A stretch of DNA of 64,000 nucleotides from a virus: the IMG/VR virus record IMGVR_UViG_3300020182_000007; one strand, written 5' to 3'. The notes beneath the pieces are model-generated. The model worked only from the letters and a program-made list of their open reading frames with translations, ran no database searches and had not been told where the DNA came from. Positions 2,586-7,842 of the stretch are shown in pieces (positions within the stretch are counted from its first letter, which is position 1; each line of letters opens with the position of its first letter). The position numbers and the translations under genes were made by a program.

Positions 2586-2601
2586 ACTGGGAAGTAGACA
2601 T

Positions 2602-2632
2602 AAAAAAACCTGAACTAAAAGTCCAGGTTTTT
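2602..2632 (-). terminator. intrinsic terminator
   Basis: Minus strand AAAAACCTGGACTTTTAGTTCAGGTTTTTTT: stem-loop plus U-tract after the ORF ending at 2659. Confidence 0.75.
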
Positions 2633-2658
2633 AATAGTTTTTGTTATATTATAAATCT

Positions 2659-3105
2659 TTATGCTTGTTTCCAACCGTTTTTACCTACCTCTAAGTTTGA
2701 CATTGCTTTTATAACATCATCAATTGTAGCAACATTACCTTTTGTTACATACCAATTGCGTTTGGTACGACCTCCGCTGCCGTCTGTTGGTTGTGCGACT
2801 ATCTGCATTTCTTTTGGTGCCAATGGTTCATAATCGTCAGAGTTAAGAATTCTCCAAGTAAAACTATAATCCAAATCTTTTATTCCAAATATTTCAGTTC
2901 CGGTATTTCCTTTAGTCTTTGTATTCATGGTAAAAAAACCATGGCTATAGTCTACTTCCCATGTTGTAATCCCGGTTGCCTTAATTAATTTTTTTGTTAG
3001 TTCTGTACGTTCTTTTAGCCTTAACTTAGCATCTTGATTAGAAGTACTATCATCAGCGAATTGAGATTCATTGATAAACTGTTCAAATAATTTAATGTGT
3101 TTCAT
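2659..3105 (-). CDS. hypothetical protein with capsid-targeting-like N-terminal tag (MKHIKLFEQFINES)
   Basis: ORF track; the N-terminal motif is shared with many ORFs in the window. Confidence 0.75.
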   Translation of the reverse strand: MKHIKLFEQFINESQFADDSTSNQDAKLRLKERTELTKKLIKATGITTWEVDYSHGFFTMNTKTKGNTGTEIFGIKDLDYSFTWRILNSDDYEPLAPKEMQIVAQPTDGSGGRTKRNWYVTKGNVATIDDVIKAMSNLEVGKNGWKQA

Positions 3106-3121
3106 TTTATATTTTGTTTTA

Positions 3122-3382
3122 TTAAACTGAATAACCGGCGTCTGATAAGTACGATTGTACTACGTCAAGTGCATCATCAAATCCTTTGTTTTTTTCTACA
3201 CCCGCATTTGGTCCCCATTCTTCTTGCATCCAGTATTCTAATGACTCAAATCCTTCGTCTTCCCAATCTCTGTTTTTTGGAAATTGAGACTTAAATTCAT
3301 CTCCAATATTATAAGGATCTATATCATCCCATGATTTTCTACCTTCTGTGATAAACTGTTCGAATAATTTAATGTGTTTCAT
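3122..3382 (-). CDS. hypothetical protein with capsid-targeting-like tag (MKHIKLFEQFITEG); start probably 3382 rather than 3397
   Basis: The second ATG begins the shared motif; the GATATATA motif lies upstream at 3409-3416. Confidence 0.75.
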   Translation of the reverse strand: MKHIKLFEQFITEGRKSWDDIDPYNIGDEFKSQFPKNRDWEDEGFESLEYWMQEEWGPNAGVEKNKGFDDALDVVQSYLSDAGYSV

Positions 3383-3408
3383 AATGTTTATTTTCATTTT
3401 TTATAATC

Positions 3409-3416
3409 TATATATC
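3409..3416 (-). promoter_or_regulatory. putative late promoter GATATATA (one of about 11 copies)
   Basis: tatatatc on the + strand at 3409, 6398, 15572, 19926, 20102, 33506, 39903, 47201, 48544, 55970 and 61347, mostly at or near gene boundaries upstream of minus-strand genes. Confidence 0.65.
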
Positions 3417-3430
3417 TTTTATTTTTACAA

Positions 3431-3469
3431 ATAAAAAGGGCAGAGATAGTAGCGAACTTTTCTCTGCCC
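3431..3469 (-). terminator. intrinsic terminator after nrdA with an unusually long loop
   Basis: Minus strand GGGCAGAGA-AAAGTTCGCTACTA-TCTCTGCCC-TTTTTAT: perfect 9-bp GC-rich stem plus U-tract. Confidence 0.8.
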
Positions 3470-3516
3470 AAGCCGTAACTATTACGGTCCTAAAATCCGA
3501 TCGTATTTCAGATCGG
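3438..3516. ncRNA. three-hairpin structured element containing 23S rRNA helix-69-like sequence
   Basis: Three adjacent stems (GGGCAGAGA/TCTCTGCCC, CCGTAA/TTACGG, CCGATC/GATCGG). Positions 3472-3493 GCCGTAACTATTACGGTCCTAA match conserved 23S rRNA 21/22, and GTAGCGAA lies at 3449-3456. Confidence 0.55.
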
Positions 3517-3523
3517 CGTTTCT

Positions 3524-5149
3524 TTAAGCTCCGCAGCTATCACAATCAAGAATGTCTCTTGCAAATGACTGTGCTGAACTTTGACTAAATTGATAATATA
3601 GCGTCTTTACTCCCTCTTCGTGTGCATATAAATACAATTGATTAATATCCTTTGCTGCTACACTTGGGTGAATCATTAAATTTAAAGACTGTGATTGGTC
3701 AATAAATTTTTGTCTCTGTGCTGCCTGTAGAATTAATTCCTTTGGGCTAATTTCAATAAATGATTTAAATACTGCCTTTGTTGGAAAGTCTAAGTGTTGT
3801 ACACTTCCATCTTTCTTTAAGATGTCCTCCCATACCTGTGGAGTGTTTAATCCGTATTTCTCTAATTCAGTTATTAAGTGATTATTTTTGTATATTGTCT
3901 TGGATTTTGCTAAATCTTTTACGAAATAATTAGATTTAATTGGTTCTATTCCCATGCTTACTTGACCTAGAATAAATGAACTACTTTTTGTCGGTGCGAT
4001 TGCAAGCAAAGTTGAGTTTGCATATCCTGGTCTAATTGATTTAATATCTTTCTCATCATGTAGCCATCTTGAAGCCTTATCGCTTCTCTCTTTTAGCGTT
4101 GAAAATATATCATGGTTAATTGCCTTTGCTGCTAATGAATTAAATTCAATAAGTTTTGATTGAAATAGTGAATGATATCCAAGTACTCCTAATCCGATAG
4201 CTCTGTGCTCTTTTGCAAATCTATGAGCTCTTGCCATTCCTGGTAAGTTATATGATTTCTTAACAAATTCATCCATTACTGCGTTTAAGAACAGTACGTA
4301 TGTCTCAATTGCATCAGTTTCTTTAATTTCATCCCAGTGTAAAAGATTTAATGAACCTAAACAACAAACAAAAGAATTAAATGAATCTGTTGGTAATTGA
4401 ATTTCAGAACATAAATTTGAAGCTGTAATTTCAAGTCCTAATTCTTTATAGGGAGAATTATTATTAGAGTTGTCTTTAAACATGATATATGGAAAACCAA
4501 ACTCATTGCGCTTTTGAATAACTTTAGCCCATACTTTACGTTTATCTGCATCACCATCTTTCATTTCTTGAATCCATTTGTCAGTTACCGTAACTCCATA
4601 TTGTAGATTTTGAATAGGGTTTCCTTCAGTTCCAATATCTAAAAATTCTAAAATGTCATTATGTTCTATTGGCAGCCAAGCTGCGCATGCACCTCTTCTT
4701 GCTTCGGATTGTTTACATACATCGACAGTAGTATCATACATTCTAGCATAGTGTACTGGTCCGTCTGCTGTCCCTCCTGTAGAAATACTTGCACCTCGCT
4801 CTCTAATGTTTCCTAAATAAACTGAAGTTCCGCCTCCATATTTTGACATCATTCCAATCTCTCTTGAACCGTTTAAGATACTATCTAATGTGTCATCTAC
4901 GTTTGATCCATAACAACTGATTGGAAGTCCTTTATCTTTTCCAAAGTTAATCCAAACTGGAGTTGATAAACTATAAAAACCCCTGGTCATATAATCCTCA
5001 AACTTATGCGCAAATCCTTCTATCTTTAAATATCTTTCTGCCGTGTTTGCAATGTCCTTAATCCTCTGTTCCGGTGTTTCCGAAATGTAACCTCTAGATA
5101 GAAACGTCCTGCTATCCTCGTTTAACCAGTAATTTTTTTCGTATTTCAT
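3524..5149 (-). CDS. nrdA: class I ribonucleotide reductase alpha subunit (short, no ATP cone)
   Basis: PISCY, SNLCSEI (Asn/Cys/Glu active site), VCCLGSLNL, KTLYY radical-transfer tyrosines, C-terminal CDSC; 541 aa. Confidence 0.95.
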   Translation of the reverse strand: MKYEKNYWLNEDSRTFLSRGYISETPEQRIKDIANTAERYLKIEGFAHKFEDYMTRGFYSLSTPVWINFGKDKGLPISCYGSNVDDTLDSILNGSREIGMMSKYGGGTSVYLGNIRERGASISTGGTADGPVHYARMYDTTVDVCKQSEARRGACAAWLPIEHNDILEFLDIGTEGNPIQNLQYGVTVTDKWIQEMKDGDADKRKVWAKVIQKRNEFGFPYIMFKDNSNNNSPYKELGLEITASNLCSEIQLPTDSFNSFVCCLGSLNLLHWDEIKETDAIETYVLFLNAVMDEFVKKSYNLPGMARAHRFAKEHRAIGLGVLGYHSLFQSKLIEFNSLAAKAINHDIFSTLKERSDKASRWLHDEKDIKSIRPGYANSTLLAIAPTKSSSFILGQVSMGIEPIKSNYFVKDLAKSKTIYKNNHLITELEKYGLNTPQVWEDILKKDGSVQHLDFPTKAVFKSFIEISPKELILQAAQRQKFIDQSQSLNLMIHPSVAAKDINQLYLYAHEEGVKTLYYQFSQSSAQSFARDILDCDSCGA

Positions 5150-5161
5150 GTGTAATTTTAT

Positions 5162-5380
5162 TTAATTATTGTTATTTCCCCCTTCTGTTTCAATCCATAC
5201 ATGTGCTCCACAACTTAGGGGTTTATCAGGGCTATACACTACTTTGCTAGGACCTAATATTTTTACTTCATGTGCATATGTATTATCCTTGTATGTTTTA
5301 CAAGTTAATACAGGATCTTTAACATTGTTCTTTCTATTAGATTTTATTACGTGTTGGTTAACGTGAATAATTGTTTTCAT
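5162..5380 (-). CDS. phage hypothetical protein (72 aa) between nrdB and nrdA
   Basis: Tiles between the RNR genes; IHVNQH...YSPDKPLSCGAHVWIET resembles a small protein recalled from other phages (unverified). Confidence 0.75.
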   Translation of the reverse strand: MKTIIHVNQHVIKSNRKNNVKDPVLTCKTYKDNTYAHEVKILGPSKVVYSPDKPLSCGAHVWIETEGGNNNN

Positions 5381-5383
5381 AAT

Positions 5384-6364
5384 TTAAAACAAATCATCTT
5401 CAGTAATTGATTTGCTTTTCTTATTATAATCGGTACTTTTCTTGTAGAAGAAATCTCCTTCTTTAGTTGCTGTAATTTCTACATCAAACCATAATGTCTT
5501 TTCAATTTCAGTAAAATCAACATCAAATACAGGTTTCATACCGATGCGAGTTAATGAGTTATTGAATCTGTTTTTAATAAAGTTCTGTATAGTTTCTTTT
5601 GACAAAAATGAAAGTTCACCTTGCTCAAAGATCCAATCTAATATTTTACATTCAGCAACATAAGCCTTCTTGCATGCTGAATCTATTAGTTGTTCAAACT
5701 CCTCATCGAACCATTCTGGATTTTCTTCTTTAATAATATTAATAAGTTCTGATCCAAAGTTTCCGTGAATTTCTTCTTCTTTTGATGTTGCTTCAACTAC
5801 ATTTGAGATTCCTTTAAATAAGTTCTTCTCTTTGTTAAACGACATCATAATTAAGAACTGACTAAACAGACTTACATGTTCTATAAATAATGAGAACAGT
5901 AATACTGATTTAGTATACATTTTATCATCTCTACTTCTTGTACCGTCTAAGTATTTCTTTAAGTATGAAATTCTGTCTTTAATTGCAGGAATTTCAACTA
6001 CACTTTTAAAATCATCTTCTAATCCAAGGACTCTAAGTAATTGTGCGTAAGCATCTTTATGTCTTACTTCAGATTCTGCAAAAGTCATTCCAACATCACC
6101 AACTTCTGTAATAGGCATTCTTTTATAAAGATCTGCCCAAAAAGTTTTAACATTAACTTCAATTTGTGCGATCGCAAGCATTGCTCTCTTAATAACTTCT
6201 CTTTCAGAATCAGAAACCTTAGTTTTAAAATCGTCAATATCTGTAGTGAAGTTAAATTCGGTATGAATCCAATATGAGTGTCTAATTGCGTCTTTATACG
6301 CTAACAATTGTGGGTATTCATATGGTAATATATTTGTTCTCGGTTGAAAAATGTTTTTATTCAT
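5384..6364 (-). CDS. nrdB: class I ribonucleotide reductase beta subunit (class Id-like)
   Basis: Ferritin-like ligands E69, E99-x-x-H102, Y106, IEHVSLF and EEEIHG; Lys73 at first ligand +4; C-terminal DFFYKKSTDY. Confidence 0.95.
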   Translation of the reverse strand: MNKNIFQPRTNILPYEYPQLLAYKDAIRHSYWIHTEFNFTTDIDDFKTKVSDSEREVIKRAMLAIAQIEVNVKTFWADLYKRMPITEVGDVGMTFAESEVRHKDAYAQLLRVLGLEDDFKSVVEIPAIKDRISYLKKYLDGTRSRDDKMYTKSVLLFSLFIEHVSLFSQFLIMMSFNKEKNLFKGISNVVEATSKEEEIHGNFGSELINIIKEENPEWFDEEFEQLIDSACKKAYVAECKILDWIFEQGELSFLSKETIQNFIKNRFNNSLTRIGMKPVFDVDFTEIEKTLWFDVEITATKEGDFFYKKSTDYNKKSKSITEDDLF

Positions 6365-6438: not shown

Positions 6439-7842
6439 TTATTTTTCAAATCTTTTTTTGAGTTCGTGAGCCTTTTCGTAATACTGGTACGATAATTTCT
6501 TATAATCTTTTCGTTGCTCATACAAGTCTCCTAGTATGTTTTTAAGAACTGAATCTTCTTTCTTATATACAACACCATTCTCACAAACTATTTCTTCTGT
6601 ATTCTTCCTGCGTTGCTCTATTTGAGTCTTAGGTATTATATCTACATATGCTTCTGGTGATATATTAAACTGTCTCATTACTGAAGGATATAGTGAAGCA
6701 AAATCAAATGCGCTTACTCCAGAATAATATCCAACTATTGGTTGTTTTACAAATGCACCTGCGTATTTGCCATCTTTTTGATTATCTTTCTGATTATAAT
6801 CAACCCCAATCTTGTGATTTTGCTCAGCCATCTTACGAGCCATTAATGCTTCGGTTACTGCAACGGGGCTTGCTGCTTTGTATAAAGGCATTTGTGTAAT
6901 CGTTGCAAGAGTAAGTAAAACTTCCATTGATTTTAATTTTTCGTCAATATAATATACTAAAATAGAATCTACTACATTATAAAACACATACTTTTGAAAA
7001 TCATTTTCATAAAGATCTTGTAGAGAGCCCGTGTGCTTTATTTTAGCAACATCAAGAACTTGGCCAGCAACAAAATCAAGGCGATTTGATTCTTTTACCT
7101 TTACCGATCTGTCATATTTGTCATATAATTGCATATAATCTAAAATACCCATATGTAAAGGTCTACTATCGTTACTATCAAGAGCTCCTGTTACTGCAAT
7201 TTCAGTTAGATCTATCTGGAGTCTTTTACAACGATTTACAATATACTGCCAGTCATAGTTTATAAAATTCCATCCTGTCATCATTGGGAATTTAGGTAGG
7301 AATTTATGCAAGAACGTATATAACATGTTGTATTCATCCTTAAATTTATAGTAGCTAAACTCCCAATCTTGATCGTATTTCCTAAAGTGCTTTAGTGTGT
7401 CATCCTCAATCTTCTTGATTTGTTCGCTAGATAAATCATCAAGACCTAAGACGATAGCCTTGCGTTCAGGTGTAATAATGGAGAACGCTAATATTCTAGT
7501 TCTAGCCTCTTCCGCTTTTGGAAAACCATCTACTATTTCGGTTTCAATATCGACAAAATATGTTCTTGGCATATTAAACTCGAATATTTCTTTCCGATCA
7601 TTCTCAGGAAGAGAATCCATAAAATAGACTAGAGAAAACTTATTAAAGTTTCTAGAGCGCTGTCTTTTAAGAGGACGTCCATCCCAATTTGTATATGTTT
7701 GATCTTTCCACTTTTCATCTTCACCAGCAACTACCCAATTTTCAAATTGAGATACTGGATACCTTTTAAAGGCTACCTTGCCTTCTTTGTTGTAGTATGA
7801 AACAATGACTTCGTTGGCTTTTTGTTCAATATCTAATAGCAT
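6439..7842 (-). CDS. polB: family B DNA polymerase, N-terminal subunit (3'-5' exonuclease plus motif A)
   Basis: Exo I FVDIETE, Exo II GWNFINYDWQY, Exo III YNVVDS, motif A FDFASLYPSVMRQFNISPE. Ends in the first fingers helix (EQRKDYKK...). Confidence 0.95.
   Translation of the reverse strand: MLLDIEQKANEVIVSYYNKEGKVAFKRYPVSQFENWVVAGEDEKWKDQTYTNWDGRPLKRQRSRNFNKFSLVYFMDSLPENDRKEIFEFNMPRTYFVDIETEIVDGFPKAEEARTRILAFSIITPERKAIVLGLDDLSSEQIKKIEDDTLKHFRKYDQDWEFSYYKFKDEYNMLYTFLHKFLPKFPMMTGWNFINYDWQYIVNRCKRLQIDLTEIAVTGALDSNDSRPLHMGILDYMQLYDKYDRSVKVKESNRLDFVAGQVLDVAKIKHTGSLQDLYENDFQKYVFYNVVDSILVYYIDEKLKSMEVLLTLATITQMPLYKAASPVAVTEALMARKMAEQNHKIGVDYNQKDNQKDGKYAGAFVKQPIVGYYSGVSAFDFASLYPSVMRQFNISPEAYVDIIPKTQIEQRRKNTEEIVCENGVVYKKEDSVLKNILGDLYEQRKDYKKLSYQYYEKAHELKKRFEK

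Follow-up and report, generated by a model that had tools for sequence, protein, structure and literature searches.

A predicted family of folded phage RNAs with loops complementary to 23S rRNA

Behind the gene for the large chain of ribonucleotide reductase (nrdA), the stretch of viral DNA analysed here (64,000 nucleotides, referred to below as the window) carries bases that also occur in bacterial 23S rRNA, and the question is whether this likeness is accidental, a relic of ribosomal DNA or part of an RNA made by the phage. The rRNA reference used is E. coli rrlH from the rrnH operon (L394). On the plus strand, positions 3472–3493 read GCCGTAACTATTACGGTCCTAA, which is identical with 23S 1907–1928 at 21 of 22 bases, the sole mismatch being A1918; positions 3449–3456 read GTAGCGAA, identical with 23S 1930–1937. 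The second segment comes next in the rRNA and lies upstream of the first here, in the loop closed by a perfect 9-bp stem. Both matches had been claimed in an initial annotation of the locus, together with a third stem (CCGATC, 3497–3502, with GATCGG, 3511–3516), and all three are borne out by direct reading of the sequence and, for the matches, comparison with rrlH. When up to three mismatches are allowed, the 22-mer occurs once in the window and in none of 100 shuffles. The 8-mer by itself is found three times against 0.74 expected, which is not significant, so that its weight comes from its position in the element and its invariance across the family rather than from the window count.

The element behind nrdA

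All genes of the window lie on the minus strand, and there is no plus-strand ORF of at least 150 aa that is free of a longer minus-strand ORF; the transcript is therefore the antisense of the rRNA. The same had been proposed from the direction of nrdB-nrdA, with which the Pfam assignments agree; the small chain of ribonucleotide reductase is encoded at 5384–6364(−), upstream of nrdA. A gap of 8 nt separates the nrdA stop codon from the element, which, read as RNA from the minus strand, is made up of H1, UUUUAGGACCG, H2, H3 with UUCGCUAC in its loop, and UUUUUAUUU (Table 1). Within block 1, UUAGGACCG is the Watson–Crick complement of 23S 1920–1928, the two leading U could form wobble pairs with G1929–G1930, and the final CCG doubles as the start of H2. 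The conserved UAGUU of H2 is complementary to the loop of helix 69 (H69), 23S 1912–1916. The stem of H3 is perfect (3438–3446 with 3461–3469) and contains six G-C pairs.

Table 1. Features at the 3' end of nrdA in the window.
Feature	Position	Strand	Basis
nrdA, ribonucleotide reductase large chain, 541 aa	3524..5149	−	ORF list; Pfam PF02867, E 2.7e-96
H1, 6-bp hairpin CCGAUC/GAUCGG, loop UGAAAUAC	3497..3516	−	sequence, fold
Block 1, UUUUAGGACCG	3485..3495	−	invariance in relatives, complementarity to rrlH
H2, hairpin CCGUAA-UAG-UUACGG	3473..3487	−	fold, covariation, complementarity
H3, 9-bp GC-rich stem with 14-nt loop holding block 2	3438..3469	−	sequence, covariation
Block 2, UUCGCUAC, in the H3 loop	3449..3456	−	complement of 23S 1930–1937
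U-run UUUUUAUUU, directly after H3	3429..3437	−	sequence
AT-rich box GAUAUAUAGAUUAUAAAAA	3398..3420	−	recurs in relatives

H3 and the U-run together resemble an intrinsic terminator, at which the RNA would end. Amongst the usual features of such terminators, a GC-rich stem followed by a U-run is present and a loop of 3–8 nt is absent (14 nt here); a consensus terminator scanner made no call at H3, the loop being longer than 8 nt. By its position and its U-run, the element shares the 3' end of the nrdA mRNA, which is a trait of small RNAs derived from 3' UTRs. The AT-rich box is likely to be a separate promoter for the cargo genes, outside the RNA; the ORF that follows it has its start codon at 3397. 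Many relatives (L001–L037) have a conserved GATATATAAT or GATATATAAATA box after the U-run, which is like a T4-type late promoter or −10 box. Contigs from RNA libraries (four runs) cover 2600–5600 patchily and come mostly from relatives; such contigs carry no strand, end or level information.

Distribution of the element and the strand that folds

It had been suggested that a chance palindrome could be recognised by comparing the 3' regions of nrdA in related phages. The nrdA protein has at least 584 relatives in viral contigs. Of the 77 loci where the sequence reaches far enough downstream, 37 have the three-hairpin element behind the nrdA stop codon, with a T-run after every one of these copies (37/37). 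The rRNA-matching bases are invariant in these regions and the stems covary. The other 40 nrdA relatives are without the two conserved blocks at this place, and several of them have a simple GC-rich hairpin and U-run. Amongst the aligned copies, UUAGGACC and UUCGCUAC are found in 41 of 41. The H2 stem varies in relatives (CCGGGA/UCACGG, CCGAAA/UUUCGG, CCGUUA/UAACGG) and the UAGUU stays, so that the conserved parts of the element are UUAGGACC, the loop UAGUU and UUCGCUAC. The exact H69-like 22-mer is present in one other viral contig only and, since H2 covaries as well, the 21/22 match is a trait of this copy's H2 stem. The likeness to H69 had thus been counted correctly and its importance overstated, in that the stem carrying much of it covaries freely.

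The family extends well beyond nrdA. A scan for the two blocks finds them together in at least 120 further viral contigs, with the hairpin architecture in all of those listed; among the contigs listed, which are up to 353 kb long, 52 upstream and 51 downstream protein clusters adjoin the element. In relatives, it lies in gene-sense orientation, 5–36 nt from the upstream stop codon, and block 1, which precedes the last hairpin, has the core CCUUAGG or UUUUAGG. There is a single copy in the window and exactly one in each of five records of 150–353 kb, two of which are complete with terminal repeats; contig L003, with two copies approximately 0.8 kb apart (1627–1732 and 2412–2515), is an exception to this pattern. 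Amongst cultured phages, the Pseudomonas phage PA5oct, accession MK797984, has one copy at 115,477–115,542(+), which begins at the stop codon of gp189 (115,471–115,473) and has a terminator behind it. This copy is common to PA5oct and ten close isolates, and phage Paride also carries the element. The four ncRNAs listed for PA5oct all lie away from it. No copy was found by a strict pattern in 121Q, RaK2, GAP32, KVP40 and HTVC008M, or by a looser pattern in phiKZ; divergent copies could escape both.

In bacteria, a stricter 19-base pattern had no match in 802 sampled genomes from two phyla. This pattern was used because a looser scan with two 8-mers, in 596 Gb of genome contigs, was swamped by chance matches, approximately 10^4 of which are expected; the rows of that scan that were inspected are either random hits or genuine 23S genes read in antisense. 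The element looks virus-specific and, as far as can be judged from sequence, behaves like a single-copy gene. A BLASTN search of 3300–3700 against 50,697 phage records gave no match; Rfam 15 has no relevant match at E up to 10 for the window copy and one pseudoknotted copy, and nothing at gathering score in 12 loci. The literature searched contains no description of such an element. These results agree with the original view that none had been described. On the strength of these comparisons, we consider that the element is a member of a widespread, undescribed family of folded RNAs of large aquatic phages and not a chance palindrome.

Amongst the evidence for a fold is that, when 41 relatives are analysed with RNAalifold, nine of the ten pairs in H1 and H2 have compensatory changes on both sides, including all six pairs of H1. 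The last hairpin (H3, or P3 in the second architecture described below) was assessed with 75 distinct hairpins that present the same invariant 9-nt loop: 77% of the cells pair, and the covariation score is 0.825, as against 0.235 in shuffles, none of 500 of which reaches the observed value. The score falls to 0.12–0.20 when the partner is slid. Minimum free energy, compared between sense and antisense in 139 copies, did not tell the strands apart, and for this reason G·U pairs and A·C mismatches were counted on the defined helices. Folding the gene-sense strand of 93 distinct H3/P3 hairpins gives 85 G·U pairs and eight A·C mismatches; the opposite strand would give the reverse, and the gene-sense strand is thus the one that folds.

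Many copies have a second architecture, in which three hairpins (P1, P2 and P3) are joined by a pseudoknot. P1 has CCUUAGGACC in its loop and in some copies encloses H2, the loop of P2 (GGCUGCU) pairs with the 3' tail GAGC, and P3 has the loop AUUCGCUAC. The pseudoknot also varies by matched changes (GGGUGCU/GACC, GGCCACU/GUGGC and GGCUACU/GUAGC). In this class, the element lies 5–14 nt after the stop codon and the next ORF is often 13–50 nt behind. It should be noted that the P2 hairpin of L082–L201 and L325–L393, (C)GGCUGCUG(G), is the complement of 16S 517–526, the 530 loop. The P2 loop pairs with the element's own 3' tail, and covarying variants lose the 16S match; this match may be a coincidence, the chance of which we put at approximately 2% per 9-mer.

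Complementarity to domain IV of 23S rRNA

With rrlH as reference, CCUUAGGACCG complements 23S 1920–1930 (in this copy through nine Watson–Crick and two possible U·G pairs), AUAGUU complements 1912–1917, and AUUCGCUACC complements 1929–1937. The two invariant blocks abut on the 23S rRNA, where they span 1920–1937; we estimate the probability that two invariant 8-mers would by accident be complementary to adjoining 23S segments at approximately 5e-6. A further set of 107 elements was obtained via the loop of P2 and the tail, neither of which is complementary to 23S; a search anchored on P2 involves no selection on the rRNA-complementary blocks. CCUUAGG is at least 96% conserved in these elements. 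Among the first eight positions, the one that varies most (A 95, G 9, U 3 in the 107 elements) faces U1923. Within 1906–1944, the Rfam bacterial consensus gives just two bases in lower case (less conserved), U1923 and its partner G1907.

In some subfamilies, the last loop is a different one. CGCCAUUC, on three different stems, complements 23S 1968–1975/76, and UACGCCAG, on at least six stems, complements 23S 1971–1977/79. Loops that have been replaced and are still complementary to a neighbouring strand of domain IV appear hard to explain without selection for complementarity. In the mature ribosome, most of 1920–1937 is structured or buried. According to the Rfam consensus structure, 1930–1934 and 1963–1971 are unpaired and form junction strands around helices 67–71. 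These helices are highly flexible in late 45S precursors (PMC3737534).

Several features bear on how such pairing might be made. Both loops contain a YUNR sequence (UUCG and UUAG), of the kind that characterises the recognition loops of antisense RNAs. A scan of the rRNA operon for duplexes, based on energy alone, picks 23S 1920–1930 as the site for block 1; for the long H3 loop of this copy, the same scan did not pick 1930–1937. The loop variants GGAGUCGUGCC and CCGGGAAU, two common ones, have no long match in E. coli rRNA. These variants are seen as the P3 loop in subfamilies that include L325, L330, L334, L337, L351 and others, and another subfamily has a conserved AGGCGUC ahead of P2. The loop of the UACGCCAG subfamily might instead pair with a GGCGUC that lies upstream of it, and in some relatives, including PA5oct, block 1 is paired internally to CCUAAGG-like bases. 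The window copy has fewer free bases, since the CCG of block 1 is paired in H2 and RNAfold closes three more pairs within the H3 loop. Read 5' to 3', block 1 also precedes block 2 just as its target precedes that of block 2 in the rRNA; a plain antisense strand would have them the other way round, and a junction-like pairing geometry would thus be required. Recognition of exons by group II introns provides a parallel: EBS1/EBS2 pair with IBS1/IBS2 through two loops with adjacent targets in the same 5'-to-3' order, which indicates that the permuted geometry is workable. Unlike those introns, the element (approximately 90 nt) has no ribozyme core, no reverse transcriptase and no match to an Rfam intron.

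Two bacterial 23S genes present a separate observation. In the antisense reading of L245 (a Minisyncoccia MAG) and L318, conservation breaks at approximately G1930/U1931, between the two phage blocks, and unrelated sequence lies beyond the break; these breaks are presumably rRNA introns at a known insertion site.

Candidate roles and the systems they resemble

It appears about evenly balanced whether the RNA base-pairs with 23S domain IV. If it does, the RNA would be transcribed with nrdA from the minus strand and would end at its own hairpin and U-run; it would be either the 3' UTR itself or a small RNA released from that UTR by processing. UUAGGA(CCG), the UAGUU of the H2 loop and UUCGCUAC in the H3 loop would be displayed so as to be placed for pairing; the three segments together would form the complement of 23S 1912–1916 and 1920–1937, that is, of helix 69 and of the strand at its junction with helices 70–71. 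Kissing complexes in which a 9-nt loop pairs through 8 of its bases are achievable. Pairing would occur when this region of 23S is not locked into the ribosome, be it in nascent 23S, in late pre-50S particles with helices 67–71 still mobile or in free 50S subunits, and the consequence would be that large subunits are held or blocked during infection. The comparisons establish the family, its fold, the strand and the complementarity; pairing inside the cell, the state of the rRNA that would be bound and the consequence are inferred. The full statement, that an RNA found in many phage lineages pairs with the universally conserved helix 69–71 junction in nascent or free 23S and either stops the maturation of subunits or captures them, has in our judgement somewhat less than an even prospect of being correct. 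Possible purposes would be host shut-off, nucleotide economy or another; the window copy sits in a cluster of nucleotide-metabolism genes. The initial annotation had offered, as the first of three alternatives, an RNA derived from the 3' UTR that pairs with H69 of the host 50S subunit and modulates subunit joining. The antisense 3'-end RNA is favoured by the strand, the hairpin with its U-run, the G·U excess in the 93 hairpins and the invariance of the complementary bases; the binding to 50S and the effect on joining are retained as inferred.

The known systems closest to pairing with domain IV are antisense RNAs that present loops. CopA/CopT of plasmid R1 and RNA I/RNA II of ColE1 have, like the element, short conserved YUNR sequences in loops on stems that are free to vary, and pairing would be expected to start as loop contacts here too. 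CopA and RNA I differ in being encoded opposite their targets, to which they are fully complementary; the proposed target of the element is host rRNA in trans, addressed through two or three blocks of 8–11 nt each. The small RNAs CpxQ, SroC and DapZ likewise come from the end of a protein gene, the terminator of which they share. They use a single-stranded seed, usually with Hfq, against mRNA targets; for the element, no link to Hfq or mRNA target is evident and no partner sequence is found in the window. Guide RNAs (snoRNAs and the archaeal sRNAs) are also small RNAs that target the H69 region before the subunit matures. Their antisense order is kept around an inserted helix, in contrast to that of the element, and we know of no counterpart of their partner proteins in bacteria or phages.

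Phages manipulate translation via proteins, tRNAs and features of mRNAs, and to our knowledge no phage RNA addresses rRNA itself. If the proposal is correct, the element would be the first known case of a natural RNA directed at the RNA core of the ribosome for host takeover; pairing, if real, would add a new layer to phage–host conflict and would yield both a natural antisense ligand of bridge B2a, between the subunits, and a means of probing late 50S assembly. This bridge is a validated antibiotic-target region. The RNA, which looks single-copy, spans phage lineages and habitats, and the stretch that it would target is among the most conserved and functionally central in 23S; the presence of the element in PA5oct, a cultured phage of P. 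aeruginosa, and in its ten close isolates makes the question directly testable.

Alternatively, the element might be a structured 3' end (a terminator, an mRNA stabiliser or a processing site) with conserved loops that bind a protein or another RNA, the likeness to rRNA being the leftover of captured antisense rDNA or a coincidence without a role. We regard this as the most serious of the rival explanations, albeit an unlikely one. It accords with the position of this copy at a gene end with a hairpin and U-run, and with the plain GC-rich hairpin and U-run that several of the 40 nrdA relatives without the blocks have in its place. The internal pairing of block 1 in some variants and the two loop variants without an rRNA match are also what might be expected of such an element, and H2 is located where an antisense copy of H69 would be. 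Against this, a terminator requires no invariant loop, and here 75 distinct stems keep one and the same 9-nt loop; nor would generic terminators be expected to occur as a single copy across unrelated gene contexts. Descent from rDNA, for its part, leaves unexplained why the unpaired bases alone are rRNA-like when the stems have drifted, why the pieces are in permuted order and why other subfamilies have a loop for a second nearby 23S strand. PeSL (promoter-early stem-loop) cassettes of T4-type phages are comparable in that an intergenic hairpin and promoter mark the border of a variable region. A genome holds many PeSLs, the loops of which are not invariant; the element is present once in each of the five large records.

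Pairing with 23S could also act in cis, by tethering the large subunit after the upstream gene and so aiding translation of the next gene or protecting the mRNA end, loosely in the manner of TURBS. The evidence from complementarity serves this explanation as well as it serves pairing in trans, and the spacing of the pseudoknotted class (close behind one stop codon, with the next ORF often close behind the element) is in its favour. TURBS of caliciviruses and influenza B, and the 3' translation elements of plant viruses, are likewise structured viral RNAs near a gene end with actual or proposed pairing to rRNA. They differ in being eukaryotic, in having the 18S rRNA of the small subunit as target and in acting in cis on reinitiation or cap-independent initiation. 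A TURBS-like stop–start junction within a single mRNA is absent from the window, where the hairpin with its U-run and the AT-rich promoter-like box part the element from the next gene. One copy in each of the five large records, with unrelated neighbours in the family, is a poor fit to a general coupling device, and we know of no bacterial precedent for the tethering of a 50S subunit. A cis-acting tether is considered improbable.

The two other alternatives of the initial annotation fare much worse. A plus-strand mimic of H69, serving as decoy for an rRNA-directed nuclease or for RluD, RlmH or RRF, would account for the 21/22 sense identity; the plus strand of the window copy folds no less well than the minus strand (z −6.4 versus −4.1), and there is a weak terminator-like site at 3497–3516 on the plus strand. 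However, no plus-strand ORF of at least 150 aa is free of a longer minus-strand ORF, the G·U pairs (85 versus 8) arise only when minus-strand RNA is folded, the H69-like stem is not conserved in relatives, and the rRNA pieces, being permuted, rebuild no contiguous rRNA surface; we think the mimic very improbable. The least probable explanation, to which we give almost no weight, is a feature of the DNA itself (either a relic or decoy of a target for an I-CeuI-type homing endonuclease, or a hotspot of recombination where the cargo begins), for which the border position between conserved nrdA and variable cargo genes and the matched rRNA segment, which is the I-CeuI site, might be cited, and against which stand the split and permuted site (such a target is contiguous over approximately 19–26 bp, and the plus strand has no contiguous 18-mer within five mismatches), the compensatory changes in three stems and a pseudoknot of relatives, which imply selection on a single-stranded fold, and the lack of a Pfam match to an endonuclease family in the eight neighbouring ORFs scanned (0/8).

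Three further candidates were rejected. ARAGORN finds no tRNA-like fold, and the loop is without the T-loop A58; a self-cleaving ribozyme has no Rfam match and the two loops are without an internal partner; a partner site for the element was searched for in the 64-kb window and none was found.

The surroundings of the element have some features of their own. A family B DNA polymerase is encoded in two parts on the minus strand. The N part (6439–7842) comprises the exonuclease domain and the beginning of the polymerase domain; the C part lies at 585–1787. The 4.6 kb between them hold nrdB, a 72-aa ORF, nrdA, the RNA element, two small cargo ORFs and a conserved 247-aa ORF, and the order PolB-N, nrdB, nrdA, variable cargo, orf247, PolB-C is kept in about 30 relatives. 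The two cargo ORFs (3122–3397 and 2659–3105, minus strand) have a common N-terminal peptide, MKHIKLFEQFI, encoded by near-identical DNA, and many of the RNA-library contigs of relatives match the window at these short stretches (3072–3105 and 3349–3382) alone.
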